Shown piece by piece: positions 1-54,605 of a stretch of 55,374 nucleotides of DNA. The notes below the pieces were generated by a model. It was not told where the DNA came from. It did no database searches and saw only the letters and a program-made list of their open reading frames with translations. A program made the translations under genes and the position numbers. Every line of letters starts with the position of its first letter. The first letter of the stretch is position 1. Source of the stretch: Chiloscyllium plagiosum (taxonomy: Eukaryota). The stretch is taken from contig NC_057718.1 of the NCBI RefSeq assembly GCF_004010195.1, positions 93,802,179-93,857,552 on the forward strand, given 5' to 3'.

Positions 1-1739
1 GGGATAGTGAGATTGATGGACATGTTTTGTGTCTGTCCCAGGCCTGGTATGAGTGAATTTACCTAGCATTGCACTTAATACTTATCAAAATATTTTTTCA
101 ATGTCTGTGATAGATTTACAATTTTGTGAAATTGGTGACTGGATGAAGCTTCTGTTGTAGAAGCAGGTGAATTATGATTTCCATTGAGAACTGGAAGTAT
201 TCTGTAACAGTTAAAAAGTTGAAAAGGTACATAAAGATACCAATGTACATATGAAAGTTTTTAACCAGTTATTTATTATGTTTGGGGAATAAACAGCCAC
301 ATGGACTCTGTTATACTGTATACCAATGATGCATTAATGCTTTACATCATATTTTAACAATGTTAGAGGAACCAAGACGGCCATTTGGAATATGCTGTAA
401 TACTTTTAAAATTCTTTCATGGGATATGAGTATCACTGGCAAAGCCAGAATTTGTTACCCATCCCGAACTGCACTTCAGAAGGTGGTAATGCGCTGTTGC
501 GAGCTATCTGGTGTTGTTAGGAAGAGAATTTCTCTACAGAGCAATTCAGTTATTTCCATTGCCTGACTGTATTGAAATCAATCAGCTTTTAATGTGAGTT
601 TCTCATTCTTTTATATTTGCACCCAAAATCACTGTTATTGTCAGCTGTGGCACAGATTTGTAGTTTCATTCTGACCTTGGTACATTCAAATGCTGATTTC
701 CACACTTGTTCTTCAAATAGTAAATTAACAAAAAAGCATAACTTATTCTTTCCATTGAAGACAAGATTGGCAATAAGATTTCACTTGAAATTACCACATC
801 AGTTGCGGTTAATTGCTACAAAGACAAGGGGTGTACAGCACAACTGGAAAGCTACGGGCAACAGCATAAGCCTGCAGGAAGAAACACTCCTGTATCTGCT
901 TATACAGCTGAGTTATACACTGTCAGGATTGGTGGAGGGGTCTAAAATACTGCTAAAGCTTGTTTGCTTCTTGCAGAAAACATTTTGACAGAACTGATCC
1001 ATAAAGCATTCTTTTGTCTTTGTGAGAATGTTTTGAAGCCATTTCTTTTATACTTCCTCGGTGATAGGGAAGTGCATGCATGCACGCTGAAAGGAATTCT
1101 GTTAGCATGGAAAGGACTCGTGCAATGATTGATGACCCACTACCTTGATCACCATGCATTTGCCCAGGGTGGTCTCTGCTGTGACTTTAAAGCCACATAA
1201 ACCTCACGTAGCAAAGGCAGCACAAAAGGTATTTCAGCTAAAGAAGGTGCACGAGTTCATGTGGAAAGCAATTTGGCTGGCTTCCAGTAACACTCCTGTT
1301 TGTCAAAACATATATCTTTCTGTAAGGCAGTCCTCAGCATGAAAGGCATGAATTGCAATGTTCCTACTTATTCACACCAAGGAGAAAAATGCTCATTTAA
1401 ACCTGAGTATCTTATCTCTGGTAAGTAATGTTGTTTGTCTTCCATTGTTTCCTGTTTTAGTTCCTACCCTCTTGAGAGAACAGGGAAGCACAATCTAAGC
1501 CCAGACTCTTGGCCTTATTTCCATATGGTGCAGCTGGCCAGATTGTCACAAGACACCCCCTTCCACAGTCGCACGGCTGAGCTGAGCATGGGAATTCGGG
1601 GATAAATTGGTTTTCCATTTGGATCTGAGATGGACTGAACCAATGGGTAGATCGTGATTTGGAGGTGCCGGAGTTAGACTGGAATGTACAAAGTTAAAAA
1701 TCACACAACACCAGGTTATAGTCCAACAGGTTTATTTGG

Positions 1740-12837: not shown

Positions 12838-13318
12838 GAGTGGCACAGTAGCTTAGTGGTTGGCATTGCTGCATCATAGCACCAGGGACCCAGGTTTGCG
12901 TCCATCCTCGGGCGACTGTCTGTATGGAGTTTGCATGTTCTCTCTGTGACTGCATGGGTTTCCTCCAGGTGCGCCGGTTTCCCCCCACAGTGACAATCAC
13001 CTGATGAAGGAGCGTCGCTCCAAAAGCTAGTGTGCTTCCAATTAAACCTGTTGGACTATAACCTGGTGTTGTGTGATTTTTAACTTTGTACACCCCAGTC
13101 CAACACCGGCATCTCCGAATCAGTCCAAAGATATGCAGGCTAGGTGAATTGGCTAAAATGTCCATAGTGTTCATGGATGTGTGGGTTAGGTGCAATAGTC
13201 AGGGGTAAATGTAGAATAATAGGTTAGGAGAACGAGTGTGGGTGGATTATTCTTCGGAGAGTTGGTGTGGGCTTGTTGGGCCGAAGGGCCTGTTTCCACA
13301 CTGTAAAGATTCTACAAT
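12838..13318 (+). mobile_element. HE1 SINE interrupted by a PLE family-B insertion
   Basis: The SINE breaks at CCCACAGT (12990) and resumes at CAGTCCAAAGAT (13120). Confidence 0.85.
12991..13119 (+). mobile_element. PLE family-B mini-insertion with hammerhead motif (GAAA mutated to AAAA)
   Basis: acaatcac-CTGATGAAGGAGCGTCGCTCC-AAAAGCTAG...CACCGGCATCTCCGAAT; CAGT is duplicated at the junctions. Confidence 0.8.
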
Positions 13319-14021: not shown

Positions 14022-14332
14022 CCATTGAATACATGAAGAATTACTGACAATAATAACCTAATAACCTGAGGAAGAACTTACACTGTCCTGGAATACATGT
14101 GACTCCAGACCCACAGTAATATGGTTGATTCTTAACTGTCCTCTCAGCCACTCAGTTCAAGGGTAATTAAGGATGGGCATCAAATGCTGGCCTTTCCAGC
14201 ATTGTCCGCATCCCATGAAAGAATAAATAAAAGCTCTCCATTGATCTCCCACATCCTTTCTGTCCTTCCTGTTGCACATTGCCGCCTCGAACAGAAATGT
14301 AATAAACAAGTATAGGAGTAGGCCATTCAGAC

Positions 14333-14695
14333 TCCACCAGTTTCTTCACTTCCCCTCCATCCACCTTGCCCCAGTTCCAACCTTCCAGCTCAGCACCATC
14401 CTCATGACCTGTCCTACCTGTCAATCTTCCTTCCCACCTATCTGCTCCACCCTCCTCTCTGACCTATCACCTTCCCCCCCACCTCCATCCATCTATTGCA
14501 CTCTCAGCTACCTTCCCCTTCCCTCCCATTTATCTCTCCACCCCTGAGGCTCTCAGCATCATTGCTGATGATGGGCTTTTGCTCGGAATGTCAATTTTTC
14601 TGCTCCTCAGATGCTGCCTGACCTGCTGTGCTTTTCCAGCACCACTCTAATCTTGACTCTAATCTCCAGGATTTGCAGTACTCAATTCCGCCCAG
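14333..14695 (+). mobile_element. PLE family-A 3' fragment (C/T-rich UTR, degenerate hammerhead, tail) inside a minus-strand CR1 tail
   Basis: Shares CCAGTTCCAACCTTCCAGCTCAGCAC with 42350 and 47425; CTGATGATGGGCTTTTGCTCGGAA at 14565. Confidence 0.8.
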
Positions 14696-15364: not shown

Positions 15365-16430
15365 GAAAGTTCGATTTTGATTTTATTGTCACAAGTATTT
15401 TACTGTAAGAATACAATAAAATACGGTGAAAGTGTTCATTTGTTCCCATGAAATGGCACCATTTTGAATCATTTAAGAATAAGGAAGTAAATGAAAGATA
15501 TAACTTGGAGAGAGTCTATCAGACCTAAGCCGGCTCATCACCATCGACGAAACCTGTGCCGCTATCCCTCCACCACCACTTCGCCGCCGTCTATGCCAAT
15601 GTTGTAGCAAAATTAATAAAACTCAAATTTAGAAGCAATTCCATCAACTTTATTAAATCAAAAGCTTTTGAGAGGAGCAGCGTGATTCTGACCCTAGCCA
15701 CGGGACTTAACCACGCCATCTCTCCCCGAACATCAGGTACAGCAGTTTATATAGTCTGGATGACGTGTACAGCAAAAGCCCACGAAAGACGGTTTCTTGT
15801 GTTCTGCGCGCGTGCACACAGTGATTGCTAGTTCCAGGAACAGCGTACCACGACGTTGTGTTCTGTATGTATTTCTTCTTTAGTTAGTTTCTGTTTTCGC
15901 CAGACCCAGGCAACATCGGAGTCAACGATCCTCAGGCGTCATCTTTGCCGCTGGGCCGATACTCCTCCTCCACCAACACCACCGCCTCCACCACTGCCAC
16001 CTACACTAGACCAACCAATGTCAGAATCATGTCTTTCGCCGCTGTGCCCACCTCACCGTGATGCCCTTCCGCTGCCAGCGCTGGACCAACCATCAACGAG
16101 ATTACCTGTCCACAGGCGCCATCTTTTGCTGCTGGGCCTACCTCGCCGACATCGCCTCTGTTGATGTAGCAGCCACCGATTCCAGGCCCTGTGCTGGCTC
16201 TGGAAAAGTAATTAATGGCTTACTCTCCTGTGGACTGGGCCTGCTTGAGGTCCGCACCCTGGGTCCACTTCAGGTCCTGCACTGGGCTCTCATTGCCACC
16301 AATGCTGTCCAAGCTCAGGATAAGGCAAGTAAATGAAAGAAAAGCAGTTGAAACGGACAAGTTCTGGCCCTGGAGCCCTACACCATTGCCATCTTGGACT
16401 GGAGGAACCAGAAGACTCTCCCTCTGCTGC
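15365..16430 (-). mobile_element. Non-coding GC-rich retroelement with Rex/Babar-type tail
   Basis: Minus-strand tail TTTCAC-hairpin-GTGACAATAAAATCAAAATC at 15372-15432; head CCAAGATGGC at about 16388-16397. Confidence 0.55.
15603..15850 (-). mobile_element. Candidate solo LTR
   Basis: TG...CA termini. Minus-strand order is CRE-like ACACGTCA, TATATAAA, then AATAAA. Flanks CAATGT/CGACGT are consistent with a CpG-decayed 6-bp TSD. Confidence 0.5.
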
Positions 16431-16498
16431 ACCCCCTCAGCAGAGTTGGGGGGGGGGGGTCTTCCAGCTCCTCCAGTCCAAGATGGTGGTGGTGTAGG
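16377..16498. repeat. Imperfect inverted repeat (arms about 55-60 bp)
   Basis: CCTACACCATTGCCATCTTGGACTGGAGGA...TCTGCTG versus CAGCAGA...TCCTCCAGTCCAAGATGGTGGTGGTGTAGG. Confidence 0.85.
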
Positions 16499-18252
16499 TT
16501 TCAGTGATAAGTATATCTCTTCTTTGTTAAGGAGACCAAGACTGTGCACAAGACTCCAGTGTATGGTCTCACTAAGGGCATGTGTGAACTCAGAATGAAG
16601 GCCAATATACCGTTAGCATTCCTAACTGTTGAATGCATCTGCAGTCACATGGTAAACCTTTGGGAAGTCCAGCTAATCAAGGAAAACAAACATCTCCCAA
16701 TCCATCCGGACCTCAGCCATATCCTTCAACCTCATCGGAAATCCCAGAAGCCCTTTAGAACCCAGAGCAATTGACCTTCAGCAATGGAGCTTCAGCCGCG
16801 GTGAAGTTTGTAATGTCAAATGAAGTTTACAATAAGTCACAAAGTAACACCTCATGAAAGATCCAACACAGAACATTCCTGTCGTTGTACTTTCCAAAAC
16901 TATATCTGTACAATCCACTGTAGGCGCACGTACGTGATGCACAACTAGAAGATTAAATACCTTCCAATGTTCTGCTGAGGTTACCTACACCAGACCATGG
17001 AGTGATAAGTGACAACATATTGCCAAACAGAAGGCATCACGGTGCATTCCAGCATTCCTAGCACAACTATCTACTTTAAGAATCTGAATGTAAAAAATCA
17101 GAATTCCTGCTCAGTCATTAAAAAAATAATTTCTATTTAGTTTTCAATTGCACTTTGCTCAACAATATCAGTCTTTAGCTATTGTCCTAAACTAATTCTG
17201 TTCCCTTTGAGATCTAATTACAGCAGGTTACCAGCTCAATTTGAGTTAAGTCTATGGATCTTTGATCTATTTACCTAACTAGGTGATAGGCTACATATTT
17301 TAATGTCATTGTCTTTCTTCACCTTGTCACTTTCCTTCATGTTTAACACCTTTTCTGGGTTAGCCTCACAGATTCTGCAGTTGCCAAGCCTTCAATTCCT
17401 AAACTGTTATCCTCCAATGCCTTGTTTTCTCTCCTGATAACCGACAGCAGTGAATTGAAGAGACGTGCTGTCCCTAACCATCATTACCCGGCAAAACCAG
17501 GAATAACAAGCTTGGATTTTCACCAACCTGCTGTATTTTTCCTTGAAGTCACTGGGCCAGCCCCTAATGTCCTGTTGATAGCGGTTGAGCGACCAACTTG
17601 TTCAGCAACATTCTCACAGATATTCTTGGACGAATTGTCGGCTGCCTTATCTTTAGTCCACCTGAGCTTTGAGAAAATGTGCAAAGTTAATTTGTGCTCT
17701 AAAGGCCTCAGATTGAACTCTAACCGCTTTTCTGTTTGCTGAGAGAGGTTTAATCTGCCAAATGGACCACATAGGTCACAGGGAATGTATCATTCCTTCA
17801 CCCTCCCTACCTCCTCCCTCTCATGCTTTGCCTCTTTCATTGCAGGTCTTGCTGAGATTAGGAATGTATGGCATTAAGGTCAAAATGTATCTGGCCATTC
17901 TATAGCTCATTACATCAATGCACAATTTGTGGCTCCCATTTCCTTGTTTAAATCTGCAGGCAAGGCATCATAAAAGGAAGAAATTTCCAATATGTAATTT
18001 GGTTTTTGATCTACTTTGATTTGCAAATATTCTTCAAAGGGTTCAGAAATGTGTCAGTTTTCGACTGAGATACCTCATCAAAAATACTCCCAAACAACTT
18101 CCTCTTTATTGTCCTCTGACTTTTGTTTATATTTTGCTGGCTTTTTTGGCATTTTGCACAGACCCTTTCCACCAGACCATGCCAATTATATGTGGGTGTG
18201 CCAAAGGCTTTTTAACATGGGAAATGATCAAATCTGAGGTCTGTCCTGTCAT

Positions 18253-18570
18253 TACAGATTCCCTACAGTGTAGAAGCAGGCCATTCAGCCCATTCAGCCC
18301 ACACCGACCCTTCAAGAGCATCCCATCCATCCCTGAATTTCCCATGACTAATTCACCTAACCTGCAAATCCCTGGACTATGGGCAATTTAGCATGGCCAA
18401 TCCACCTAACTTGCACAGCTTTGGACGGTGGCAGGAAACAGGAGCACTTGGAGGAACCTCACACAGACACCGGGCCAATGTGCAAACTCTACACAGACAG
18501 GGTGGAATCAAACCTGGGGCTCTGGTGTTGTGAGGCAGCAGTACTAACTACTGAGCCACCATGCACCCCT
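18253..18570 (-). mobile_element. HE1 SINE
   Basis: Reverse complement of the HE1 head (ACTACTGAGCCACC) and V-domain. Confidence 0.85.
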
Positions 18571-20054: not shown

Positions 20055-21390
20055 TTTTAAATTCATTCAGGGAATGTGGGCTCTGGTGGCTAAGTCAGCG
20101 TTTATTACCACCACTAATCGCCCTTGAGACGGTTGTGTTGAGAATCCTTCTTGAATGCCTGCACTCCACTTGCTGGTAGCAAGGGAAGGTCCAGGATTTT
20201 GACCCAGCAACCTTGTTTCCAAGTCAGGAAGATGATTCATTTGCAAAGGAATTTGCAGGTGGTCGGGTTCCCATGCAACTGCTGTCCTTGTCCCTCCAGA
20301 TAGCAATAGTCATGTTTTTGGAAGGTCCGATTTCAAGACCCTTGTGAATTTCTGCAGTACATCTTGCTGATAGCACACACTCCTGCTACTGCACATCAAT
20401 GATGGAGGGAGTTAATGTTTGTAGATATGATGCCAATCAGGGGAAATGCTTTCTTCTGAATAATGTCAAACCTCTTGGGTATTGTTGGAGCTGCACTCCT
20501 CCAGGTCAATGGGAAATATTCCCTTACACTTCTGATGTATGCTTTGTAGATGGTAGACAGAATCTGGGGAGTCAGGAGGTGAGTTGCTCACTGCTGGATG
20601 CCCAGCCTCTGATCTGCTCTTACAGCTACAGCGTTTTAGTCTAGTCAGTTTTTGGTGAATATTATTCCTCACAATGTAGGTAATGGAGGGCTCAGTGATA
20701 GTTCCGACATTGAATGTCGAGGGGCCAAGATCAGATTCTCTTTTGTTAGGGATGATCATTGCCATAAGCTTGCTTGGTGTAATATTACTCATCACCTGAT
20801 AGCTCAGGCCTGGATATTGTCCAGATACTTCTGCGTTTGGACATGGACTGCTTCAGTGTCTGAGGAGTCATGAATGGTGATGAACATTGGCCATCATGCA
20901 AACATCCCCACTTCTGACCTTTCAATCGACAGAAAGCCATTGATGGAGCAGCTGAAGATGGTTGGACCTAAGACAATACCCTGAGGAACTCTTGCAGAGA
21001 TGTCCTGGAGCTGAGATGACTGACGTCCATCAACCACAACCATCTGCCTGTTTGCCAGGTTGGATTCCGACCATTGGAGACTTTTGCTCATGATTCCCAT
21101 AATGCTTTGTTTTGATTGGGCTCCTTGAGGCTACATTCAGCCAAATGCGGCCTTGTTGTCAAGGATGAAAACAGGAATTGTTGGAAATTCTGAAGAAGGG
21201 TCACTGGACCTGAAGCATTAACTCTGATTTCTCGCCCCAGAGGCTGCTGGACCTGTTGAGATTTTCCAGCAACTTCTATTTTTGTTTCAGAATTCTAGCA
21301 ATTGTAGTCTTTGTTTTGATGTCAAGGACATTTACTCTCATAGCATCTCACCTCTGAAGTTCAGCTGTTTTGTCCACATTTGAACTGATT
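20055..21390 (-). mobile_element. CR1-clade LINE fragment with RT remnant
   Basis: QLQDISARVPQGIVLGPTIFSCSING...SEVGMFA; its 3' tail is shared with the second SINE family. Confidence 0.85.
21166..21315 (+). mobile_element. PLE family-C mini-insertion with degenerate hammerhead and short 5' inverted segment
   Basis: CTGAAGAAGGGTCACTGGACCTGAAGCATT at 21190; TSD TTGTTGTCAAGGA (21153-21165) / TTGATGTCAAGGA (21316-21328). Confidence 0.75.
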
Positions 21391-22246
21391 ACTAACCTAA
21401 TCATCTCTATTTTCCTCAGCCTCATTCCTTGAACCTTCCATTGGCCTTGCACTAGAATTCTGGGGAATCTCCTGAAAAATTCAGCCCCTGCAGATGTTTA
21501 GTCACAGTTGACTATCAGAACGTCACAAATCCCTTGTTTTTCCCTGAATCCCAGGATGAAGTTCACTCAGAGGTCTGTATTCCTGGACCATAACTTTGCT
21601 CTACTATGTCCAATTGACATTTACAGTTGTAACTCTTGACATGAGGTGTTTATTTATTAAACCATGAGCAAATGGCAAGCTGTCATGAAGACACTTCAGA
21701 ACCCAGATGGCAACAGGAAATTTCAATTGCTCATGGTTTTTCACAGTTGGTCTTGCCTTGTGCTAAAAGTGGGCCGAGCATGTCTTATTTTTGGCTCATT
21801 AAGCGAACCAATGTTATTACGCCACAGGTTTTTAAACATCAAAATTCAACCTTACCCAACCCATTCTCTGATCAGTTTCTGCCATTCAGTGTTTCAGAAC
21901 CTTGGAGCTGCCCATTACAACGTCTTGTGGCTTTTGCCCACAGCTTCTTCATTTTTTTTTTAAAAAGCTGAATACATTGAGGAAACCATTAAAATTACAG
22001 TACGTTCTCTTCAAATCAGGATTTCTGTGGCAGTCCGCTGCAGGTTATTGGCTTAGCTCATCTGATCTTTCTTAACTTGAATGATTCATATGGCTATTTC
22101 TCACTGGACAGACAACTCATGATGATTTATGTTATGCCTAAAGATTACAGTGAGAAAGACCCCTAAACTGTTCTTTACATCTCTCAAACCCCAATGTAGA
22201 GATTTTAAACTATTTGGTGCTAAATAGCTTTATTTTTTTTGATAGG

Positions 22247-22474
22247 CAAAAGTGAGGATTGCTGATGCTGGGAATCAGAGTCTTGATTAGAGTGGCGCAG
22301 GAAAAGCACAGCAGGTCAGGCAGCATCCGAGGAGCAGGAAAATCGATATTTTGGGCAAAAGCCCTTCATCAGCGTTCAGTCCTGATGAAGGGCTTTTGCC
22401 CAAAACGTCGATTTTCCTGCTCCTTGGATGCAGCCTGACCTGCTGTGCTTTTCCAGCACCACTCTAATCTCGAC
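22247..22474. mobile_element. PLE family-A inverted pair
   Basis: Minus copy 22247-22372, short spacer, plus copy from 22381 (CCTGATGAAGGGCTTTTGCCCAAAACGTCG). Flanked by TTTATTTTTTTTGAT / TTTATGTTTTTTGAT. Confidence 0.85.
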
Positions 22475-22560
22475 ATTTATGTTTTTTGATGGCTGGTTTG
22501 TGACTTGTGAAACTTTGTTGGGAGATGATTATCTGTAGGTAAGAGGATGGGAGCAGGATG

Positions 22561-23289
22561 TACAAAGTTAAAAATCACACAACACCAGGTTATAGTCCAA
22601 CAGGTTTATTTAGAAGCACTAGCTTTCGGAGCACTGCTTCTTCATCAGGTGGTTGTGGAGTGTTAGATTGTGAGAAACAGAATTTATAACAGAAGTTTGC
22701 AGAGTGATGTAACTGAAATTATATATTGAAAATTACCTGGATTGTTTGTTTAGCCTCTCATTTGTTAGAATTACCATGTTGGTTTCAGTTCTTTTACATG
22801 TAAATCGCAAAACTTTTTTTAAAAGTTACATTCTCAAGTGAACTTTAACAATTGGTGTCGTTGGCCCAGATAATGCATTGAAGGTGTGAGGTGCCCTGTG
22901 TGAGGCTGTCTGTGCCCCAATGTTCAGATTGATTCTGACCATTGGACAGTTGGACTGAACACCCCAGTCCAACACCAGCATCTCCAAATCATGACTACCA
23001 TTGACACCACTAACTACTGGCATAAAGTGGAGAAGATCTCCAAGAAGATCGCACATAATGAGACTAAACAAACAATCCAAGTCTTTTTCAATATGTAATT
23101 TCAGTTACATCACACTGTAAACGTCTGCTCTAAATTCTGTGTCTTACAATCTTATACTCCACAACCACCTGATGAAAGAGCAGTGCTACGAAAGCTAGTG
23201 CTTCCAAATAAACCTGTTGGACTATAACCTGGTGTTGTGTGATTTTTAACTCTGTACACCCCAGTCCAACACCGGCATCTCCAAATCGA
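22561..23289. mobile_element. Internally deleted PLE family-B element with inverted pLTRs
   Basis: Inverted terminal segments of about 200 bp, each with a hammerhead motif; TSD GAGCAGGATG at 22551-22560 and 23290-23299. Confidence 0.85.
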
Positions 23290-24287: not shown

Positions 24288-24329
24288 GAGATTCCTGAAG
24301 AAGGGCTTATGCCCGAAACGTCGATTCTC
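24288..24329 (+). ncRNA. Minimal type-I hammerhead ribozyme motif (PLE family A)
   Basis: gagattc-CTGAAGA-A-GGGC-ttat-GCCC-GAA-ACGT-C-gattctc. Stem I has 6/7 pairs, palindromic ACGU; predicted cleavage 3' of C24322. Confidence 0.75.
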
Positions 24330-24420
24330 CTGCTCCTTGGATGCTGCCTGACCTGCTGCGATTTTCCAGCAACACATTTTTCAGCTCTGATCTCCAGGAT
24401 CTGTAGTCCTCACTTTCTCC
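24291..24420 (+). mobile_element. PLE family-A mini-insertion (about 130 bp)
   Basis: Runs from ATTCCTGAAGAAGGGC to CCTCACTTTCTCC, near-identical to 48544-48671 and 39089-39217. Confidence 0.85.
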
Positions 24421-24671: not shown

Positions 24672-25005
24672 GGTCAGCATGGTGACTCAGTGGTTAGCAC
24701 TACTGCCCCACAGCGCCAGGAACTTGGGTTCAATTCCAGTCTTGGGTGACTGTCTGTGTGGAGCTTGCACATTCTCTCCATGCCTTCGGGTGGTCTGGTT
24801 TCTTCCCACAATCCAAAGATGTGTAAGTTAGGTGAATTGGCCGTGCTAAATTGCACATAGTGTTCAGGGATGTGTAGGTTAGGTGCATTAGTTAGGGGTA
24901 ATACAGAGTAATTGGGGAGGGGAAGAGATCTGGGTGGGTTACTCTTTGCTGTGAACTTGTTGGGCCAAATGGCCTGTTTCCTGTAGGGATTCTATAATTC
25001 TATGA
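24672..25005 (+). mobile_element. HE1 SINE
   Basis: A/B boxes, V-domain and (ATTCTAT) tail. Confidence 0.9.
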
Positions 25006-25194
25006 AAGATAAGCGAGGAACATCCCCTTTAATTTCTAAAGGCATCCCTGTGAGGAACTAAATTTAATCAATGCAGAACACCAACAAGAATTAATGTTTT
25101 TACATGTGGGAAACCTTCAAGGCTAAAGTTGAACATCTTCGTTGCTTAAGAATTCAGAATGGGTCATAACAGCAACCGATTTTACATAGCCCCT

Positions 25195-25290
25195 GAAGCA
25201 AAAACAGAAATTGCTGGAAAAGCCCAGCAGGTCTGGCAGCATCTGTGGAGAGAAATCACAGTCAATGTTTCAGTTCGAGTGCAGTTCTTT
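25195..25290 (-). mobile_element. PLE family-C fragment
   Basis: AAAACAGAAATTGCTGGAAAAGCCCAGCAGGTCTGGCAGCATCTG; a similar fragment lies at 40625-40700. Confidence 0.65.
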
Positions 25291-25395: not shown

Positions 25396-25487
25396 CTTGA
25401 TGAAGGGCTTATGCCCGAAACGTCGATTCTCCTGCTCCTCGGATGCTGCCTGACCTGCTGTGCTTTCCCAGCGACACATTCTCGACT
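25396..25487 (+). mobile_element. PLE family-A mini-insertion
   Basis: TTGATGAAGGGCTTATGCCCGAAACGTCGATTCTCC (core C3 changed to T). Confidence 0.8.
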
Positions 25488-26499
25488 CATTCAATCTGTC
25501 ATAGATTTTAAGGAGCTAAAGATCAACTTCACTCTCAAAACATGTCCCTGTATGGTGTGGTACAACATTAGGATGATAAATCAGTTTGACCCATTGGTTT
25601 GAAGGATGGCCCAACACACTGCCTCCAATGAACTAATTTTTTAGCTTATATGATTTACAAGGTTCCTTGCAACAACTTACTGAGTTGATTTTTAAAAGCA
25701 ATTTTTTTTCCTGTCAACATTTTGCTGGTTTTTGAGGATCAAGAGTAGCTATTCCACATACAAGCAGTATCACTTTCATGTTCTCCTTCAATCGATATCA
25801 TTACCATTCTTTCATCATCACTGGAATATTAGCCTTCAATTGACAATCTAATATCTTTGGAGAGTACACTTCACCAACAGATCAAAAGTAACACCCACCA
25901 CCATTTTCTACCAATTAGGACAAAGGATGAAGATGGCCAAAGTTCCAAGAAGACCTCAAATTTTCTACAAATAGTTTCATAGAACCTTTTACATCTCGCT
26001 GAGAGGACACAGGAAGCCTCCGTTTAATAAATCATCTGAAAGATAAGTCCCTCCAACAATTATAATCAGGAAAGAAAATTTTAAAAATCATGAAAATTTT
26101 ACAACTGTCCTTTTCCAGTCTTCTTGAGTTTTCAGCCTTAAGGTGAGGCCCGAATGATTATTCACTGAAACACAGTTAACGGCTGGGATTTTATTTTCTA
26201 TGGTTAGGGTGAGGAAGCACCTCATCCAGAACAAGAATCAAATCTCATATTGTTGATGTTAACCTGATTCACAGGCTACTCCTTTAGCCAATCTTATGAA
26301 TTACCACAAGGGATGGACAATATGGAATGACTGGACAACAAGGAATAATGAAGGAAAGAGATTAGAATGGAGGAATGGTAAAGGAAAGATAGGTAGGACA
26401 TGAGGTAAGGATAATGGACAAGAGAAGGATAGAAGGGTTGTGAACTAGGGAATGCAAATATGAAGTGATTGGCAAAAGAATCAAAGGCACTATGAGGAA

Positions 26500-28440: not shown

Positions 28441-29467
28441 AAATGGAAAAAGGTACATGCGAGTCAACATTTTATGTATCTTCCAAGGCACTGTTGCACA
28501 ATTGCTCAAGTTACTTGCAAACAGGCATGACTTGTGCTAATAACTGAAGAAGTTAACACATTATTAAATTCTTGTTCAAAGTCAATAATGAATATCTCCT
28601 ACAGAAAGCAAAAAGAATCTTCTAATTTTAAATTTTACAACCCTTAGTTTAATAATAAGGTCAGCGGAAATCAACATTTAAGAAATCTACAATTCTATCA
28701 TTTCAATTATGTGAACTCTGCTTTGTGAACTGAGCTGAAAAGAATTCAGTATTGTTCTTGAAGCATTACATTCTGTAGTCTGGTTTTCTATCTTGAAATA
28801 AGTCTTCACAAAATAAATCTTTTAAAAGTGGTTTCAGCTAGCATTATATTCCTAAACTTTGTTTAATAGCTCATAACTGCACAGCCTATAACTTTTGCCA
28901 GTGGTTTTACAAGATGGCTTTGTTCTGTCTCTCTGGTTAATGTGCCATATAAATTCATTGCACATTTATTGCCTCATGCTGTTTGGTCATAAACTCCTCT
29001 GTTCGCTTACCACCCTGTGTAAACATAAAGATATCAGGTGAAAACTAGAGAGGCCTCCACTGAGATCTCTGCTGTCCTTCAATTCGAGTTTCTTGTGCAT
29101 TTTAATTTTAATTTCTCTGCCATTGGCGGCCGTTTTTTCAGCTGCTTGAGCCCTCAGCTCCAATAATTAGTTTACCTGCCTCAATATCACTATATGTGGG
29201 AGTTTGATTTCAAATCCTGTTTAATAATGCCTCTGTGAAGAACCGTGGGTCTTTTTTTTAACAATGTTCAAGGTGCTATATTAATGCAGATTACTGTTGA
29301 TCAAGGTTTTGTTTAAGGTGCACAGATGATATCCTACCAAGTCCTTGATTCTTTCATAAGGATTTCTGGAATGCAGCTAAGTTGTTTTGCGACAGTGCGG
29401 AGCAGAGACTGAGCACTTCAAAAAAGAAAGAATGGAAAATTGTGCAAGTAAACTTCTCTTGCATCTC

Positions 29468-29985
29468 GAGTCATAGAGCTCTACAGCACAGAAACAGACC
29501 TTTTGCTCCAACAGGTCCATGCCGACCTAGATGGCCTAAGTTAATCTAGTCCTGTTTGCCAGCACTTGGCCCATATCCCTCTAAACCCTTCCTATTCATG
29601 TACCCATCCAGTTGCCTTGTTATAATTGTACCAGTCTCCATCACTTCCTCCGGCAGCTCATTCCACACACGCACCACCCTCTGTGTGAAACAGTTGCCCC
29701 TTAGGTCTTTTTTAAATCTTTCCCCTCTCACCTTAAACCTACATCCTCAAGTTTTGGACTCCCCTACCCCAGGAAAAAAAACCTTGACTATTCACCCTAT
29801 CCATGCCCTGCATGATTTTATAAACCTCCATAAGGTCACCCCTCAGCTTCTGACGGTCCAAAGAAATTACCCCCGGCCTATTCACCCTCTCCCTATAGCT
29901 CAAACCCTCCAACCCTGGCAACCTTCTCTTGGATCTTTTCTGACCCCTTTCAAGTTCCACAATGTCTTTTCTATAGGAGGGAGAC
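29468..29985 (-). mobile_element. CR1/HER1 3' fragment
   Basis: LPGLEGLSYRER...LRGDLMEVYKIM...QRVVRVWNELPEE. Confidence 0.9.
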
Positions 29986-30029
29986 CTTTGTCAAAAAGGG
30001 AAAAAGGGCTGGGCCTAGTAATTACAAGC

Positions 30030-32269: not shown

Positions 32270-32410
32270 TGTTGAAAATATGTTGCTGGAAAAGCACAGC
32301 AGGTCAGGCAGCATCCAAGGAACAGGAGAATCGATGTTTCAGGCATGAGCCCTTCTTCAGTTTTCAGCTCTGATCTCCAGCATCTGCAGTCCTCACTTTC
32401 TCCTAGAAGA
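32270..32410. mobile_element. PLE family-A insertion with 5' inversion
   Basis: Inverted hammerhead half 32270-32360, direct tail 32361-32410; perfect 14-bp TSD TGAATACCAGCAGT at 32256-32269 and 32411-32424. Confidence 0.85.
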
Positions 32411-33199: not shown

Positions 33200-33575
33200 T
33201 TAGAGTTATAGAGTCACACAGCACGGATACAGACTCTTCAGTCCAAGTCATCCACGCCGACCAGATATCTCAAACCAATCTAGTCCCGTTTGCCAGCCTT
33301 TGGCCCATAAACCTCCAAACCCTTCCTATTCATGTACCCATCCAGATGTCTTGTACATGTTGTAATTGTACCAGCCTCCACCACTTCCTCTGGCAGTTCA
33401 TTCCATATACACACTACCCTCTACGTGAAAAAGTTGCCCTTTAAGTTCCTTTTAATTATTTTCCCTCTCCTCTTTATACCTATGCCCTCTAGTTTTGGAC
33501 ACTCCTACCCTGGGGAAAAGACCTTGGCCATATCCATGCCCCTCATGATTTTATACACCTCTATCAGGTCAACCT
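33200..33575 (-). mobile_element. CR1/HER1 3' fragment
   Basis: Homologous to 3668-4030 and 29468-29985. Confidence 0.85.
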
Positions 33576-34288: not shown

Positions 34289-34642
34289 GTGTGTGTGTGT
34301 TTATGTATGTGCAGTTGTGTCTGTATTTGTGTATGTTTGTGTGTGTATTTGTATATGTTTGTGTGTGTATTTGTGTATGTTTATGTTTGTGTGTGCTTGT
34401 ATGTGTATTTGTGTGTGTATTTGTGTATGTTTGTGTTTATGTGTGCTTGTATTCTAATCTAATCTAATCTAATGTATTTGTGTATGTTTGTGTTTGTGTG
34501 TGTGCTTGTGTGTGCGTTTGTATTTGTGTATGTTTGTGTGTGTGTGTTTGTGTTTGTGTGTGCATGCATGTGTTTGTGTGTGCACGCGTGTGTGTGTGTG
34601 TTTGTTTGTATATATGTGTCCATATGTGTGTGTGTGTGTGTT
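34289..34642. repeat. Degenerate (TG)n microsatellite with an embedded (AATCT)n SINE-type tail
   Basis: Direct reading; TTCTAATCTAATCTAATCTAAT at about 34452-34473. Confidence 0.95.
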
Positions 34643-34835
34643 GCAGGGGGAGGTGGTGTTGCTGGGTGACAAAGGGAGGGTGCTAACCAGATGCCAACTG
34701 CCCCACTTCAAAGTGACAGTGGAAAGCACAGAGCCAAAAGCACCTTTGATCAATCTCACACCATTTAGTGCCCCTGTTACAATTGGCAATGAAATGTCCC
34801 GAATTGACCACAGAAGGAAACTTGGTGCGGAAACT

Positions 34836-35150
34836 GGGTGGCATGGTGGCCCAATGCCTGCCTCACAGCACCAGGGACCTGGATTTGATGCCACCCTTGG
34901 GCGACTGTCTATATGGAGTTTGCACACTCTTCCTGCTTCTGCATGAGTTTCCTTCCACAGTCGAAAGCTAGATGGATTGGCCATGCTAAATTATCTTGTA
35001 GTGTCCAGGGATGTGCAACTTTAGGTGGATTAGACTTGGGAAATACAAGGTTATAGTGTAGGGGGTGACGGGTCTGTTTGGATGCTCATCGGAGGGTCGG
35101 TGTGGATTCAATGGACTGAATGGCCTGCTTCCACACTATTAGAGATTCTA
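34836..35150 (+). mobile_element. HE1 SINE
   Basis: HE1 head, V-domain and CR1 tail. Confidence 0.85.
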
Positions 35151-36456: not shown

Positions 36457-36795
36457 GAATCATAGAATCCTTACAGTATGAAAGCAGTCCATTCAAGCCA
36501 CTGAGTCCACACTGACCCTCTGAAGATCATCCCACCCAATGCCCATAACCTTGCATTTCCCATGGCTAATCCAGCTAACCCACACTTCCCTGGACACTGC
36601 AGGACAACTTAGCTTGGCCAATCCACCTAACCTGCACATCTTTGGATTGTGGGAGAAAACCAGAGTACCCAGAGGAAACCCACGCAGACAAGGGGAGAAT
36701 TTCCGAATTCCACACAGGCAGTCACTCAAGAGGGATTTAACCTGGGTCCCTGGCACTGTGAGGCAGCAGTGTTAACCACTGGGCCATGGTGCTGC
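36457..36795 (-). mobile_element. HE1 SINE
   Basis: Reverse-complement HE1; a Deu-SINE remnant lies upstream at about 36030-36290. Confidence 0.85.
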
Positions 36796-37099
36796 CTATT
36801 ATTGGAGGATATTACAAACAGCGGGATCATTAAGAGGTTTAAACATGATGAGGGGAATTTGAAATGAGGAACTATCAAGCGATGTAGACTACAGACCACA
36901 AAGACAACAGATTCTTGATGCAGATTGACAGAAGGGATTTGTATGGGCTGAAATTATCGAAGATTCCGGACTGGAGTAAAAATATCTACTTAACATACCA
37001 GTGCATGACCATTTCTCATCGGCAGGATCTCAATATCCAATGAATACTCTGTATAGCTGTTCCAGTCATTGAATGTTGCAGGGGAACAAATCCCAAATT

Positions 37100-37740
37100 C
37101 GAGATAGGATAGTGAAGAAGGCATTTGGTATGTTTTCCTTTATTTTCAGTGTATTGAGTACAGGAGGTGGGAGGTCATGTTGCGGCTGTACAGGACATTG
37201 GTTAGGCCACTATTGGAATATTGCATGCAATTCTGGTCTCCTTCCTATTGAAAAGATGTTGTGAAACCTGAAAGGGTTCAGAAAAGATTTACAAGGATGT
37301 TGCCAGGATTGGAGGATTTCAGCTATAGGAGAGGCTGAGGCTGTTTTCCCTGGAGCATAAGAAGCTGAGGGGTGACCTTTTAGAGGTTTACAAAATTATG
37401 AGGGACATGGATAGGGTAAATAAGCAAAGTCTTTTCCATGGGGTCAGGGAGTCCAGAACTAGAGGGCATAGGCTTAGGGTGAGAGGGGAAGGATATAAAA
37501 GAGACCTAAGAGACAACTATTTCACGCAGAGGGTGGTATGTGTATGGAATGAGCTGCCAGAGGAAGTGGTGGAGGCTTGTAAAATTGTGACATTTAAGAG
37601 GCATTAGGATGGATATATGAATAGGAAGGGTTTGGAGGGATATGGCAGGTGGGACTAGATTGGGTTGGGATATCTGGTCGGCATGGACGGGTTGGACCGA
37701 AAGGTCTGTTTCCATGGTTCATCTCTATGACTCTATGATG
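37100..37740 (+). mobile_element. CR1/HER1 3' fragment
   Basis: RIVKKAFGM...RPLLEYCMQFWSP...QRVVCVWNELPEE, with a (CTCTATGA)n tail. Confidence 0.9.
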
Positions 37741-38094
37741 CTCTGGGTTCAAGTCCCACTCTGGGGTTTGATGACCAGGGAAGGGTGTTCCTAATATGGC
37801 CAAACAGGTTGAGGAACTAATTCTTCTTCTGTTTAATTTGTAACACCTTTTAATGCTTGACGTGGTCCTCAAGCTCTATCTTCTGGCTAGATGGACCTAT
37901 TCCGGTAAAAATAAGCTGCTGGGAAAACAGACATAAGCACGTATATTGTCTGCTTCATTGTGTCCCCAAACACAGGAAGTCCTCTTTGTTTTTAAAAAAA
38001 AAGTTTTAAAAACATGTATGTTGTCTGTCGGGATTATATGTTAAAAAAGTAGCATGTAAAACTATATTTTCATGAAAATGTAGCCTGTGGCTCA

Positions 38095-38990
38095 TTATAG
38101 CAGTCTTCCCACTCCAGTCACAAGGTAGTAATTTTAAACATAATCCCATGACGTGGGGCAGGTAATCCAAGCTGGCATTCCAGGGCAGTACTGAAGGACT
38201 GCTGCATTGTTAGAGGCGCTGTCTTTTGGAGAAGATATTATACTCTGTCCCCTCCTGGGAGGTCGATGTAAATGTTAGCCATCGTGTGGAGGTGCCGGTC
38301 TTGGACTGGGATGGACAAAGTTAAAAATTTTCATGCATTGTCTGAGTTGAGATGTCACATTTTATTATAAAACCTAAAGTTATCTCGGGGCTGTGACTTG
38401 AAAGAAGTTTTGAGATGTTTATATTAATGAATCAAAACCTGCAACCCACTCTCAGTGATTAAAGACTTAAGGCTTAAACAGTGGTTAGCACTGCTGCCTC
38501 ACAGCGCCAGAGACCTGGGTTCAATTCCTGTCTCAGGCAACTGTCTGTATGGAGTTTGCACATTCTCCCCGTGTCTGCGTGGGTTTCCTCCGGGTGCTCT
38601 GGTTTCGTCCCACAGTCCAAAGATGTGCAGGTTAGGTGAATTGGCCATGCTAAGTTGCCCGTAGTGTTAGGTGAAGGGGTAAATGTAGGGGAATGGGTCT
38701 GGGTGGGTTGCTCTTCGGAGGGTTGGTGTGGATTTGTTGGGCCAAAGGGCCTGTTTCCACACTGTAAGTAATCTAATCAATCTAGGTTTGTTCACTATAT
38801 TGCACAGTTGTATGACACTTCTACTCTTCTACTCTAAATTCTGTGTCCTATGATCCTGCCCCATTCGCTCCCTGAGGAAGGAGCAGCGTTCCAAAAGCTT
38901 GTACTTCCAAAGAAACCTGTTGGACTATAACCTGGTGTTGTGTGATTTTTAACAATGTAAATTTTATCCAGCGTTATTTTGAAGAGCAGA
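38095..38990 (+). mobile_element. Deu-domain SINE split by a PLE family-B insertion, itself split by an HE1 SINE (38478-38783)
   Basis: Deu core GCAGTACTGAAGGACTGCTGCATTGTTAGAGGCGCTGTCTTTTGG. PLE 38286-38954 is bounded by a 17/20 TSD (38266-38285, 38955-38974). Confidence 0.7.
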
Positions 38991-39088
38991 CGTTTCAATC
39001 CCAAAGCTTGAATTAACACTTCAGATTGTTATTAAATTGGGGTAGGTAGGACTTCACATTGGACAAAATTGGCGGTCGTGTTTACAAG

Positions 39089-39217
39089 GAGAAAGTGAGG
39101 ACTGCAGATGCTGGAGATCAGAGCTGAAAATGTGTTGCTGGAAAAGCGCAGCAGGTCAGGCAGCATCCAAGGAGCAGGAGAATCGATGTTTCGGGCATCA
39201 TCCCTTCTTCAGGTATC
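39089..39217 (-). mobile_element. PLE family-A mini-insertion
   Basis: Reverse complement of the 24291 element; TSD TTTACAAG at 39081-39088 and 39218-39225. Confidence 0.85.
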
Positions 39218-40260: not shown

Positions 40261-41089
40261 GACATCCGTCGAAAATGTAACAGCCTTTTGCAAACACAGA
40301 CTTGAAGAGCAGGCCAAGTTAGACTGCTGAACTTTCCTTAATTTAACTCTGACCTTTTACCAAGCAGCACCTTTGGAAACGAGCTCCCACCCGTACGCAT
40401 ACACACAACCCCCTCCCCAATCACTGTAAAGAGAAAACGCCAGCAAGTTGCAAATTGTGACCTGATGGGATTGTGAGTTTTACAGGCAGTAATATTGAAG
40501 AATGTAGATGTCTGGGTGAGAGACAGGAGTTTTTACAAACGCACTCCGGACTAGGCTCACCTGGGCACAGATTTGAAGGTGGGGGCAACAAAATATTTAG
40601 TCCACGTTGGAGGAAAAAAAAAGCTGTCAATTTGTTGGTGAAACTCAGCAGGTCTGGCAGCATCTGCGGGGAGAAAGCAGAGTTAACGTTTCAGGTCAGT
40701 GCTTTGTTTGCAGTTGGCTTGAGAGGAGGTGTCTGTCTCGCTTTGTAGCCCCGTTGCTTCTCACGAACAAAAACCATTGAAAAGTTAACAAGTTCAGGGC
40801 AAATCAACTGACAACGCAGACAAAACAATGGCGGCGGGGGGGGGAGAGAGAGCGAGAGCGAGAAACGTGTCTTTATTTAAAATTCTTCGTCTAAGAGAGC
40901 GAAGGAAGTGCAGTCCTCGCTAGGAAACTTCACTCTGGGCAGCGGGAATGTTTTAAATGAATAGTCCGGTGGGGGTGGGTGGGGGAACCAGTGTTTGCAA
41001 AAAAAAACTCATTTTACAGACACAAGGGAGTGACATGTGTTGCTGTTCACCCACTTTAGTGCTTGTCTTACACTTTAAAAACAAAATTC

Positions 41090-41470: not shown

Positions 41471-41848
41471 GGGGGAACAGAGGAGTGAGCCCTCTCTGCT
41501 AGCTCCAGGTCGCTGGCCTGTGCTTCTCTCTGGCTAAGATGATGTGTTTTAGTGTGAGTGAAATACACCATGTTTTACCATGTTTTGAACCAGTCACCTT
41601 TCTTTTCATTTCTTGCCCCGTCCCATCCCCGCCAGTAATACAACTCGTTTTTTTTTTAAGGTTTGCTTGCTTGGCAACATAGCCACTACACCAACACATC
41701 TAGCCAGAGGGTAGTGAATCTATTGAAATTCTGGCTGTAGAAGCTGGTCCATCAAGTAAATTCATGGCTGGAGTAGACAGATTTGTAATCAGTCAGAGAA
41801 TCAAGGGTATTGAGGAAAAGGCATGAAAGTGGAGTTCAGGATTATCAA

Positions 41849-47234: not shown

Positions 47235-47757
47235 TGTGGTAGCCAACTCCTCCTCCCACTCTGCCAATGACATGCAGGTCCTGGGCCTCCTCCATTGCCA
47301 AACCCTAACCACTTGACGCTTGGAGGAGGAACGCCTCATTTCCCTGCCTTAGGACCCTACAACCATGCGGGAACAATATGGATTTCACCAGTTTCCCCAT
47401 TTCCCTCTCCCCACCTTATCCCAGTCCCAACCTTCCAACTCAGCACTGCCCGATTGAAAGGTCCTACATATCCATCTTCCTTCCCAACTATCCGCTCCAC
47501 TCTCCTCTCTGACCTGCCACCATCACCCCACCTTCATCTACTTATCACACTCTCAGCTACCTTGTCCACTCCCCCCCCACCCCCAGTCCACTCCCCTCCC
47601 ATTTATCTCTCAGCACCACCCGGCCCACAAGCCTCCATCTTGATGAGGGCTTATGCTCGAAATGTTGACTCTCCTGCTCCTCGGATGCTGCCTGACCGGC
47701 TGTGCTTCTTCAGCACAACACTCTTCAACTCTGATCTCCAGCATCTCACTTTCTCCC
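47235..47757 (+). mobile_element. PLE family-A 3' fragment (GIY-YIG tail, UTR, degenerate hammerhead, terminus)
   Basis: Homologous to 42160-42393, then continues to TTGATGAGGGCTTATGCTCGAAATGTTG at 47640 and the CTCACTTTCTCC end. Confidence 0.85.
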
Positions 47758-48543
47758 TGTGGCAGCCATTTGTAAAATTTGGCTTGTCAGTACTTGACTG
47801 ACCATGAGGTGACTGTACCTATTCTCTCAATGGCTTTGACGTAGGTTCCCAGTTCCCAGTTGTCGCCTTCACATGGACACATACTGGCTGGGAAAACTAC
47901 AAACTAAAAGTTCTCACTCACTGAGCGGCAAGTCAACCTCTGTCAGATAAGTGCGGCAGATGTCACATGGTCAGATGCTAGGTGGTCGCAGTGTCCCTGT
48001 GGCCAAACCTCCCGGACGACCTCCCGCCAGAGCTGGCATTGCTCAGGATGTGCAAGCTGATGGTTCTTGCAAGTTGTTGAATTTTTTTTCGTCTGCCTGA
48101 ACAAAAAACTGGAAAAAAAAACCTCTGCCCAGGAGAATGGAATTTCGTTTGCTGTTTTCTGACAACACATTACAAGCTGTCATCAGATCCTGATCTGATT
48201 TATCGTGAAGAATTTAAATTAGATTTGGGGGGATTATCCAGGTCAGTTGCAATTGGGAGTCTACTTGCAAACTGTGTGGAAAATATTTCAAACTCCACAG
48301 GCAGTAATGAGCCACTTTGTGAATTACTTCTTGAACCCTTAATACTTGTACGGCAACAGTTTATTTAAACAGCTGGGACATCCTGTGAAATGCAACACTG
48401 ACAATACTATCCTCCACATAAGAATTTCTGGAACTGATCATGAAGTTAGCTGATGTTTGTCAATGGGGCTAATACAAGACCTGCACCACAGAGCATCCAA
48501 TCAAAGTAATGCCACCGCAGACATGTTGAGTGTGACACTCGGT

Positions 48544-48671
48544 TCCTGAAGAAGGGCTCATGCCCGAAACGTTGATTCTCCTGCTCCTTGGATGCTGCCT
48601 GACCTGCTGCGCTTTTCCAGCAACACATTTTTCAGCTCCGATCTCCAGCATCTGCAGTCCTCACTTTCTCC
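48544..48671 (+). mobile_element. PLE family-A mini-insertion with intact hammerhead core
   Basis: CTGAAGA-A-GGGC-tcat-GCCC-GAA-ACGT-T; TSD TGTGACACTCGGT (48531-48543) / TGTGACACTAGGT (48672-48684). Confidence 0.85.
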
Positions 48672-51857: not shown

Positions 51858-53095
51858 ACATAGAGTCAAACAGCACAGAAATAGATTCCTCGGCCCAACC
51901 AGTCCATGCCACAAAGGTTGGCGGTGTTGTAGATAGTGTCAAGGGCTGTTGCATGACATTGACAGGATGTAGAGCTGGGCTGAGAAGTGGCAGATGGAGT
52001 TCAACCTGGATAAATGCGGAGTGATTCGTTTTGGAAGGTCAGATTTAAATGCTGAATACAGGGTTAAAGACAGGATTCTTGGCAGTGTGGAGGAACAGCA
52101 GAATCTTGAGGTCCATGTAAATAGATCCCTCAAAGTTGCCATCCAAGTTGATAGGGTTGTTAAGAAGGCAAATAGTGCTTTGGCTTTCATTTACAGGGGA
52201 TTGAGTTTAAGAGGCGTGAGGTTTTGCTGCAGCTCTCTAAAACCCTGGTTAGACCACACTTGAAATATTGTGACCAGTTGTAGTGGCCTCATTATAGAAA
52301 GGATATAGATGCTCTTGAAAGGGTGCAGAGGAGATTTACCAGGATGCTGCCTGGATTGGAAGGCTTATCTTATGAAGAGAGGTTGAGTGAGCTCAGACTT
52401 TTCACACTGGAGAGAAGAAAGGAAGAGAGGTGACTTGAGAGAGGTGTACAAGGTAATAAGAGGCATAGATAGAGTAGGTAGCCAGAGACTTTTCCCCAGA
52501 GTAGAAATGGCTGTCATGAGGTGTCATAATTTTAAGGTGATTGGAAGAAAGTTTAGGGGAGATGTCAGAGGGAGGGTCTTATTGCAGAGAGTGGTGGGTG
52601 CGTGGAATGCACTGCCAGCAGTGGTAGTAGAGTCAGGAACATTAGGGACATTTAAGCAACTGGTTGATAAGCACATGGACGGCAGTAAGTTGAGGGGTGT
52701 GTAGGTTAGGTTGATATTAGGTTGATTTTGCCTGTCTTCGGATGCTGCCTGAATTGCTGTGCTCTTCCAGCACCACTGATCCAGAATCTGGTTTCCAGCA
52801 TCTGCAGTCATTGTTTTTACCTCTAAGATAAATGTTTGGCCTACCATCGTGGGCCGAAGGGGCTGTACTGTTCTATGTTCTATGCCAAACATAATCCCAA
52901 ACTAAACTAGTCCTACCTCCCTGCTGCTGGCCCATATCCCTCCAAATCTTGCCTATCCATGTAATTTCCAAATGTCTTTTATATGTTATAATTGTAACTT
53001 CCTCAGGAAGTTCGTTCCACACGCAAACCACCCTCTGTGTCAAACATTTGCTCCTCCTGTCTTTTTTAAATCTCTCTCCTCTTTCACCTTAAAAA
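51858..53095. mobile_element. Minus-strand CR1 containing a plus-strand CR1 (about 51913-52881), which contains a PLE tail (52721-52823)
   Basis: The outer element breaks at ATGCCA, duplicated on both sides. The inner element encodes WQMEFNLDKC...QRVVGAWNALP. Confidence 0.85.
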
Positions 53096-53749: not shown

Positions 53750-54605
53750 AGCAATAAACCGGTTAGTAAGGTTAGATCACAAGGAATCAAGAGGGAGTTA
53801 GCCAATTGGACGCAACTGGCTTGAAGGTAAGAGACAGAGGTTGTGGTGGAAGTTTGGTTTTTGGACTGGAGGTCTATCACCAGTGGTATGCCACAAGGAT
53901 CCATGCTGGGTCTGATGGTTTTAAACATTTACAGAAATTATTTGGATGCGAATATAGGAGTTTGGCATGTAAGTTTGCAGATGACACCACACTAAGTGGT
54001 GTAGTGGACAGTAAAGAAGATTATCTCAGAGTACAATGGGACCTCATTCAGATGGGCCAAGGAATGGCAGATGGAGTTTGATTTAGATACATGTGAGATA
54101 TTGCACTTTGGTAAGGCAAACCAGGACAGGGCTTATGAAGGATGAACATTCCTGATGAAGGGCTTATGCCCAGAACATTGACTCTCCTGCTCCTCAGATG
54201 CTGCCTGACCTGCTGTGCTTTTCCAGTGCTGCACTTTTTAACTCTGATGTCTAACATCTGCAATCCTCACTTTCTTCCAGGGCTTATATAGTTTATGATA
54301 GGACACTGGGGGATGTTGCCAAACACAGAGACTTAGGGAGGTGGGTGTATAGTTTGTTGAAAGTGGAGTCAGGTAGACAGGATGGTGAAGAAAGCGTTTG
54401 GCATGCTCGCCTTCATTGATCAGAATATTGAGTATGGGAATTGGGACATCATGCTGCAATGGACATTAGTGAGACCACTTTTAGAATACTGTGTAGAATT
54501 CCGGTCGTCCTTTTATAGGACAAATGTTGGTAAACACGAGAGGATGCAGGAAAGATTTACAATGATGTCGCCAGGACTGGAGGGTTTGAGCTATAGGAAG
54601 GCTGA
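53750..54605 (+). mobile_element. CR1 RT fragment with a PLE family-A insertion (54137-54277)
   Basis: KFADDTTLSGVVD...VKKAFGMLAFI; PLE TSD CAGGGCTTAT at 54127-54136 and 54278-54287. Confidence 0.85.

Follow-up and report, generated by a model that had tools for sequence, protein, structure and literature searches.

The question raised by this locus is whether a compact, ribozyme-headed unit of about 130 nt, found several times over in a stretch of shark DNA, constitutes a mobile element in its own right or belongs to something larger. The stretch analysed here, referred to as the window, comprises 55,374 nucleotides of the Chiloscyllium plagiosum genome (3.56 Gb), and a BLAST search against it returned 15 matches to the region 24291-24420. 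This region is the 3' terminus, composed of a minimal hammerhead and a tail, of a GIY-YIG Penelope-like element (PLE) with a Neptune-type linker, and the unit is the ribozyme-bearing end of a common PLE, not a separate mobile element. All signed positions below are relative to the C of CUGANGA, which is numbered 0 and corresponds to window position 24295. The copies and related features of the window are as follows:

24291..24420, plus strand: solo PLE terminal unit, -4 to +125, without TSD (from sequence, BLAST and TSD measurement)
24290..24290, plus strand: G at -5 replacing the native C (from sequence and the genome-wide G excess)
24385..24420, plus strand: optional tail between two preferred 3' ends, about +75..+95 and +125 (from 16 of 18 head-to-head pairs)
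48543..48671, plus strand: solo unit from -3, with a 9-bp TSD and 3 nt of filler
39088..39216, minus strand: solo unit from -4, with an 8-bp TSD and one untemplated G between TSD and element
54148..54277, plus strand: solo unit of the CUGAUGA subfamily from -4, with a 10-bp TSD and 11 nt of filler
25397..25488, plus strand: short unit, about 0 to +92, with a tail-less end and a doubtful 6-bp TSD
22245..22474, no single strand: head-to-head unit pair, both arms stopping at the ribozyme 5' boundary
32274..32403, no single strand: split inversion, twin-priming-like, +80..+125 forward joined to 0..+86 inverted
47244..47757, plus strand: long, older copy with endonuclease ORF end, 3' UTR and unit
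14325..14690, plus strand: long, older copy with 3' UTR and unit
52721..52821, plus strand: shorter terminal fragment of a sister subfamily seen in locus L051
41846..42393, plus strand: parent ORF fragment with CX4CX2C linker and GIY-YIG-like domain, stopping at an N run

The sequence-only reading of this DNA had drawn on five copies, which prove to be a selected set, given that the window also holds the head-to-head pairs at 22245-22474 and 32274-32403 (the latter with a TSD of about 14 bp, judged by eye) and the long copies at 14325-14690 and 47244-47757. Its description of starts near CUGANGA is borne out by the copies at 24291 and 39088-39216 (minus), both beginning at -4, at 48543 (-3) and at 25397 (about 0), and four of the five do end at CCTCACTTTCT(C/T)C (+125), the exception being 25397, which ends near +92. 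The copy that it had placed at 54137, about 15 nt upstream of the motif, begins instead at 54148, at -4, the intervening 11 nt being filler behind the TSD. It had also proposed TSDs for three copies, and three of the five named copies carry them, although the lengths given as 8-13 bp were measured as 8, 9 and 10 bp. Among 30 genomic loci, an automatic caller found direct repeats of 11-18 bp in 17, and one further 7-bp call was spurious.

The 5' part of the unit has the architecture of a minimal type I hammerhead, as judged from the sequence, from covariation across families and from the organization reported in the available text of PMC4209133. Its parts are:

24291..24326, plus strand: minimal type I hammerhead
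24291-24294/24323-24326, plus strand: helix I, 4 bp with one U-U mismatch
24295-24301, plus strand: CUGAAGA core, with an extra A at 24302
24303-24314, plus strand: helix II (4 bp), with GAAA at 24315-24318
C24322 (+27), plus strand: predicted cleavage after this base, at a palindromic ACGU

In the sequences examined, a script counted 57 hammerhead cores with a helix II of at least 3 bp, and in 50 of the 57 helix III is palindromic. The pairs of helix I change in step between three families (C-G/U-A, U-A/A-U and U-A/C-G/G-C); these pairs were counted by script, the MAFFT alignment being out of register between families. An Rfam scan of the window reported no hammerhead family, only seven chance-level matches, and single-strand folding of the motif gave no significant structure (z -0.33 and -0.32), a weak fold that is expected for a dimer-dependent minimal hammerhead and is uninformative.

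The end of a GIY-YIG ORF, a pyrimidine-rich 3' UTR and the unit follow one another unbroken in loci L051, L046, L007 and L010, and in the first three of these a C-terminal GIY-YIG ORF lies directly upstream of the terminal repeat, as in EN+ PLEs. The further hallmarks of that group, namely a TSD, a minimal hammerhead in the terminal repeat and an optional 30-40 bp tail together with an inverted pLTR at the 5' side (16 of 18 pairs), are likewise present. In the window ORF 41814-42386 the motif CHHRDCKTC (CX4CX2C) precedes the GIY-YIG-like domain, in agreement with the CX2-5CxxC linker that defines Neptune and is also found in Nematis according to the available text of PMC8557442; the linker motif thus points to a PLE of the Neptune/Nematis type. 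With Pfam, GIY-YIG was reported on the ORF fragments below the cut-off (E 0.04 and 0.008). Seven longer homologues of the parent ORF were found among 869 candidates, all from sharks and rays and 55-84% identical; GIY-YIG occurs in all five that were scanned, above the Pfam cut-off in one of them (P0002), and RVT_1 lies upstream of it in two of the five, P0001 (84%) and P0002, as a weak match below the cut-off. A PDB sequence search gave no matches.

Long copies make up nine of the 30 best genomic matches. Genome-wide, truncated PLE ends number in the tens of thousands. N runs often adjoin long PLE copies (window 42394-43292; loci L006, L020, L021, L024, L032, L039, L046 and L051), and long copies are for this reason probably under-represented in readable sequence. 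Two candidates for a full-length element were rejected: in L051 the RT region is N, and a same-strand pair 3.8 kb apart consists of two separate insertions. Loci L016 and L023, about 21 kb apart on one contig (C3), hold a single insertion in duplicated DNA, and L016 has an additional partial tandem copy with flank.

The distribution of 5' ends was examined in two ways. Ends were read by hand in 200 kb taken from 20 evenly spaced places in the genome, where 33 tail-bearing arms were tallied; the two arms of one pair are non-independent, four long arms are censored (N gap, locus edge or break), and two copies with a common downstream flank (L038) are both included. The tally leaves out L031, where a local duplication holds two degenerate copies, the edge-cut copy in L032, fragments consisting of ORF alone, and pieces of a distant third family. 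In this sample 13 arms end at -10..+10, eight at +11..+100 and two at -200..-11, and ten are longer, which corresponds to 0.034 ends per copy-nt at -10..+10 vs 0.003 at +11..+100 and 0.001 at -200..-11 (P=1.5e-9). The 13 boundary ends comprise 11 at head-to-head junctions, one TSD-flanked solo and one template jump.

Genome-wide numbers, which are exact sequence-match counts for one subfamily, place the boundary more precisely. Matches to -3..+25 number 27,343 and those to -4..+25 number 21,160, a loss of 23% of copies from -3 to -4 that is followed by a loss of 27% from -4 to -5, where 5,724 of the 21,160 copies reaching -4 have a non-native base. Native sequence extends to -9 in 9,533 copies, and at least 45% of copies continue upstream into the native 3' UTR. 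The boundary is accordingly a zone, with a 23% drop by -3/-4 and 38% more between -5 and -9, the latter being partly subfamily variation. At the control position -38, by comparison, 2,946 of 23,863 copies are non-native and 84 of 100 among the matches listed have T; a second hot spot of 5' ends at -38, hinted at by L010 and L012, is absent from the genome-wide counts. At the cleavage site (+27) 4,369 copies are non-native, and 91 of 100 among the matches listed have T, as expected of CpG decay; the denominator for this site is suggested to be at least as large as that for -3 (28 vs 23 in the sequences examined). Taken together, these counts indicate that the 5' boundary is narrow and sharp, lying at -3/-4, and that ends are not enriched at the cleavage site. 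The earlier argument that random truncation does not account for the 5' ends is thereby upheld, given their clustering at the ribozyme 5' boundary in both the sampled arms and the exact counts.

The boundary is marked by an additional base. Base splits at -5, -38 and +27 were each counted by hand on the first 100 matches listed, all from contig C1. Non-native copies have 65 G, 20 A and 15 T at -5 per 100 among the matches listed; the 65 G compare with an expected 26% (P=7e-16), and controls gave G in 3 of 100 at -38 and 4 of 100 at +27. Extrapolated from these 100 matches each, about 23% of copies have a purine instead of the native C at -5, vs about 2% at -38. There is, therefore, an excess of G at -5. 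The base before this G is other than A in 2,613 cases (GG 53, TG 38 and CG 9 per 100 among the matches listed), and a subfamily with a native G at -5 is ruled out by this variability. The sequence GAG occurs only 111 times genome-wide, and so fold-back of helix I is not the source of the G; the many GAG junctions among loci L001-L030 were selected by the query. Individual untemplated Gs can be recognised at window 39216 (minus), L003, L005 and L052, whereas the origin of the G at 24290 is ambiguous because the copy at 24291 has no TSD. In a second PLE family, G precedes A at -8 in all three copies that start there (window 1795, 13001 and L034; one ambiguous).

A splice acceptor at -4 was rejected on account of the native bases, which are TC and not AG, and a lariat branch point at this position would leave the G unexplained. 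The native context TC|ATTCC presumably fits the initiator consensus, although such short motifs are common. An untemplated 5' G has been attributed to the cap for L1 and SVA insertions (PMC3287187, in the available text), and the extra G of the PLE unit is probably the signature of a capped RNA start in this element. An inverted arm that stops at 0 or -1 can also contribute a G (L025), and untemplated addition at an uncapped end can be its source as well.

The reading that we prefer, at a probability of roughly 0.6, is that RT starts inside the RNA and proceeds to a capped 5' end at -4, left uncleaved, where it runs off after copying the cap as G. A Pol II start within TCATTC, an initiator-like sequence immediately 5' of helix I, would give rise to one class of template RNA that begins at A(-4). 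From a primer at +125, or at about +90 on the other strand, RT would reach this end after about 130 nt and add C opposite the cap. The resulting short, strong-stop-like cDNA would then be joined to the target or to other-strand cDNA, or would jump template. Native-junction long copies, on the other hand, could derive from templates that have 3' UTR before the unit, either tandem or read-through RNA. The RNA end, cap and promoter at -4 are what we infer from the DNA. An internal, TATA-less promoter with an initiator is known from Penelope of D. virilis (PMC2377424), and in the available text of PMC11167929 the PLE protein nicks and extends both DNA strands, with cDNA starting on uncleaved RNA at two internal sites that bound the tail.

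A stop of RT at the ribozyme, one of the options of the sequence-only reading, came close; the stop is found, however, on the 5' side of the entire ribozyme and comes with the extra G, a combination that run-off at an RNA 5' end fits better than a structural stall. According to the stall account, RT would stall or switch template on leaving a folded ribozyme, possibly dimeric and protein-stabilised, and add an untemplated C with no RNA end at -4. In this family the boundary does fall at the outermost base pair of helix I, the PLE protein assists hammerhead folding (PMC11167929, available text), and the enrichment of GG would be in keeping with untemplated additions; but both strands of every helix have already been copied before RT gets to -4, the isolated motif folds weakly (z -0.33), and the G-marked start of the second family, at -8, lies outside helix I. 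A stall consequently appears unlikely.

Evidence from the other end of the unit comes from the inverted copies. The unit has fixed 3' ends: of 18 head-to-head pairs, 16 combine an arm that ends at about +120..125 with one that ends at +74..95, the remaining two being one cut by a locus edge and one complex pair. Most boundary ends sit in such pairs, with arm ends about 30-45 nt apart. The two 3' ends mirror the two internal RT starts and the two-strand priming described for Poseidon_Ac (PAc) in the available text of PMC11167929. A boundary made at the DNA level has to be weighed here, whereby the GIY-YIG domain would nick the element's ATT at -4..-2, or the palindromes would be built by self-priming on antisense templates. 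The anole enzyme prefers 5'-ATT-3' near its ORF-pLTR junction (PMC11167929), self-priming has been proposed for palindromic junctions (PMC3846280; both in the available text), and, of the 13 boundary ends in the unbiased sample, 11 lie in inverted junctions. Such an origin is nonetheless decidedly improbable: it leaves the extra G unexplained, ATT is missing from the boundary of the second family, junctions of the helix-I fold-back type are few (111), and the arms end at two 3' positions, as two-site initiation predicts.

Run-off from a capped end would also accommodate a third class of junction. In L005, L009 and L047:1968-2180, sequence runs past +125 into a common downstream stretch, presumably the ORF start, and three independent junctions lead from ~65-85 nt past the tail end to a start at -4/-3; L005 has a further jump to +29, adjoining the cleavage site, and every junction carries a G. 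These would be template jumps to ORF-start sequence. In L008, around position ~1500, about 40 nt between TSD and unit resemble the reverse complement of a tRNA 5' half, which we take to be tRNA-Tyr-like; ARAGORN reported no tRNA gene there (0 genes on L008), and a template jump to a tRNA is possible.

Several observations bear on the capped-end reading from the other side. Among 3,535 reads of one related organism none supported an RNA start at -4, the reads lying on both strands with no pile-up of starts; 155 of the reads have loose ends before -4, with mixed flanks, and a second sequencing run gave no reads. One long locus had N across the RT region, and no full-length 5' end was seen. Moreover, among copies that extend to -4 the native C at -5 is retained in about 73%, so most of these did not come from a capped -4 end and require a different template. 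That the stubs document a strong-stop step taken in vivo, with two-strand internal priming, capped run-off at -4 and cleaved RNA left unused, is a proposition for which the balance tips slightly in favour. If true, strong-stop stubs would allow the promoter start of the element to be mapped with nothing but DNA, and one mechanism would cover both solo and inverted pLTRs.

It remains to consider whether the unit multiplies by itself. The sequence-only reading had proposed a hammerhead-plus-tail unit moved by the PLE RT/GIY-YIG protein, and this part stands; a discrete, independently multiplying retrozyme-like element is not supported. On a tree of 45 units the solo label changes 12 times, vs 11.5 on average after shuffling (398 of 500 shuffles gave a value as low), so that no lineage apart from the autonomous copies is apparent, the tree resting on 126 columns with little resolution. 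Solo, inverted and long copies interleave on it, solos occur in several subfamilies, solo-long identity is 0.963 and long-long identity 0.961, and the solo copy L026 is identical to the long copy L021. Tandem arrays, a further expectation, were absent from the window, where no hammerhead was found in two or more consecutive tandem units, the arrangement that defines non-LTR retrozymes. A 210-nt tandem or circular monomer, hinted at by L005, L009 and L047, was rejected, its candidate junction occurring only four times genome-wide. Nor do the counts point to a monomer RNA bounded by self-cleavage sites, non-native bases at +27 being 91% T among the matches listed. A retrozyme-like element of about 130 nt that is non-autonomous yet independent, with master copies of its own or a circular RNA, would account for the thousands of copies that begin at the boundary and for solos with clean TSDs (L015, L018, L026 and L040), and PLE pLTRs are indeed the source of non-LTR retrozymes, which are present in one chondrichthyan (10.64898/2026.07.22.740005, available text). 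Against the missing solo clade and tandem arrays, ends that do not fall at the cleavage site, and a TSD-flanked solo as only one of 13 boundary ends in the unbiased sample, it is very hard to sustain.

The window contains further repeats. A second hammerhead family, with the core CUGAUGAAGGAGC...GCUCCGAAAGCUA, is present at 1655-1863, 12993-13122, 22556-22762, 23057-23287 and 38871-38963; it forms head-to-head pairs, and its 5' ends cluster at -8..0, three with G before A(-8). A third family, which is older, has a related tail and carries a hammerhead whose helix I covaries, is found at 21150-21340, 25193-25282 and 40629-40702, as well as at L039:5439 and L049:6706. A tRNA-headed, SINE-like family of ~320 bp with many copies (24675-24999, 3137-3462, 18256-18570, 36463-36796, 38479-38787 and 51195-51512) resembles the shark HE1 SINE. 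CR1-like LINE 3' fragments, which we take to be HER1-like, lie at 29461-29986, 33201-33574, 37102-37741, 43293-43550 and 49036-49862, with an ORF at 42369-43643 (minus), and the 54148 unit copy appears to be inserted in one such fragment. Pfam reported no family in any of seven stop-free stretches (including 16220-16612, 34473-34946 and 44648-45220), and no host gene was identified.

As a repeat, the family is ordinary, and its value is mechanistic. The origin of solo and inverted PLE terminal repeats and the role of the PLE hammerhead are open in the field, and this family supplies counts, thousands strong, of a G-marked 5' boundary just upstream of the ribozyme, without enrichment of ends at the cleavage site. 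Earlier work has already described solo and inverted pLTRs as well as dispersed minimal hammerheads (PMC3846280, PMC4209133 and PMC8557442, available text). The literature search found no account of the unit in sharks or of a G-marked boundary or cap G in PLEs, the only "shark" match, in the available text of PMC6155905, being the ribozyme's name; the family may well be annotated in Repbase or Dfam.

The closest known system is PAc of Anolis carolinensis (Frangieh et al. 2024, PMC11167929), in which a hammerhead likewise lies about 100 nt before the 3' end, an optional tail of 30-40 bp is delimited by two RT start sites, both strands are primed and, in the available text, cleavage is dispensable with no reads at the cut site. 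In contrast, the Neptune-type linker points to a different clade for the shark element, and neither a fixed 5' boundary nor an extra G is reported in the available text on PAc. EN+ PLEs (Arkhipova et al. 2013, PMC3846280; Craig et al. 2021, PMC8557442) share the solo pLTRs, the palindromic junctions, the head-to-head inverted pLTR without tail, TSDs of 8-10 bp and heavy 5' truncation; in the available text of these papers solo pLTRs are explained by recombination or deletion and palindromes by self-priming, whereas many of the solos described here have their own TSDs and a G-marked boundary.

Metazoan PLE hammerheads (Cervera and De la Pena 2014, PMC4209133) resemble the present one in the short helix I, the extra base after A9, the palindromic 15.2-16.2, the thousands of single dispersed motifs and the opposite-strand pairs 100-700 bp apart. 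Here helix II has only 4 bp, unlike in that report, whose available text does not name sharks, and the cleavage and circularisation model set out there has left no trace in the 5' ends counted. The non-LTR retrozymes (Li et al. 2026, bioRxiv 10.64898/2026.07.22.740005) are similar in their type I hammerhead, their derivation from PLE terminal repeats and their lack of coding capacity, and differ in their tandem units, none of which was found here; the chondrichthyan retrozyme families in the available text of that work, with a mean of 363 bp, could include relatives of the unit. Finally, a single untemplated G at the 5' junction is shared with L1 and SVA insertions (PMC3287187), with the difference that in the available text of that study the G marks full-length elements, while here, because RT is taken to start internally, it marks a 130-nt product.
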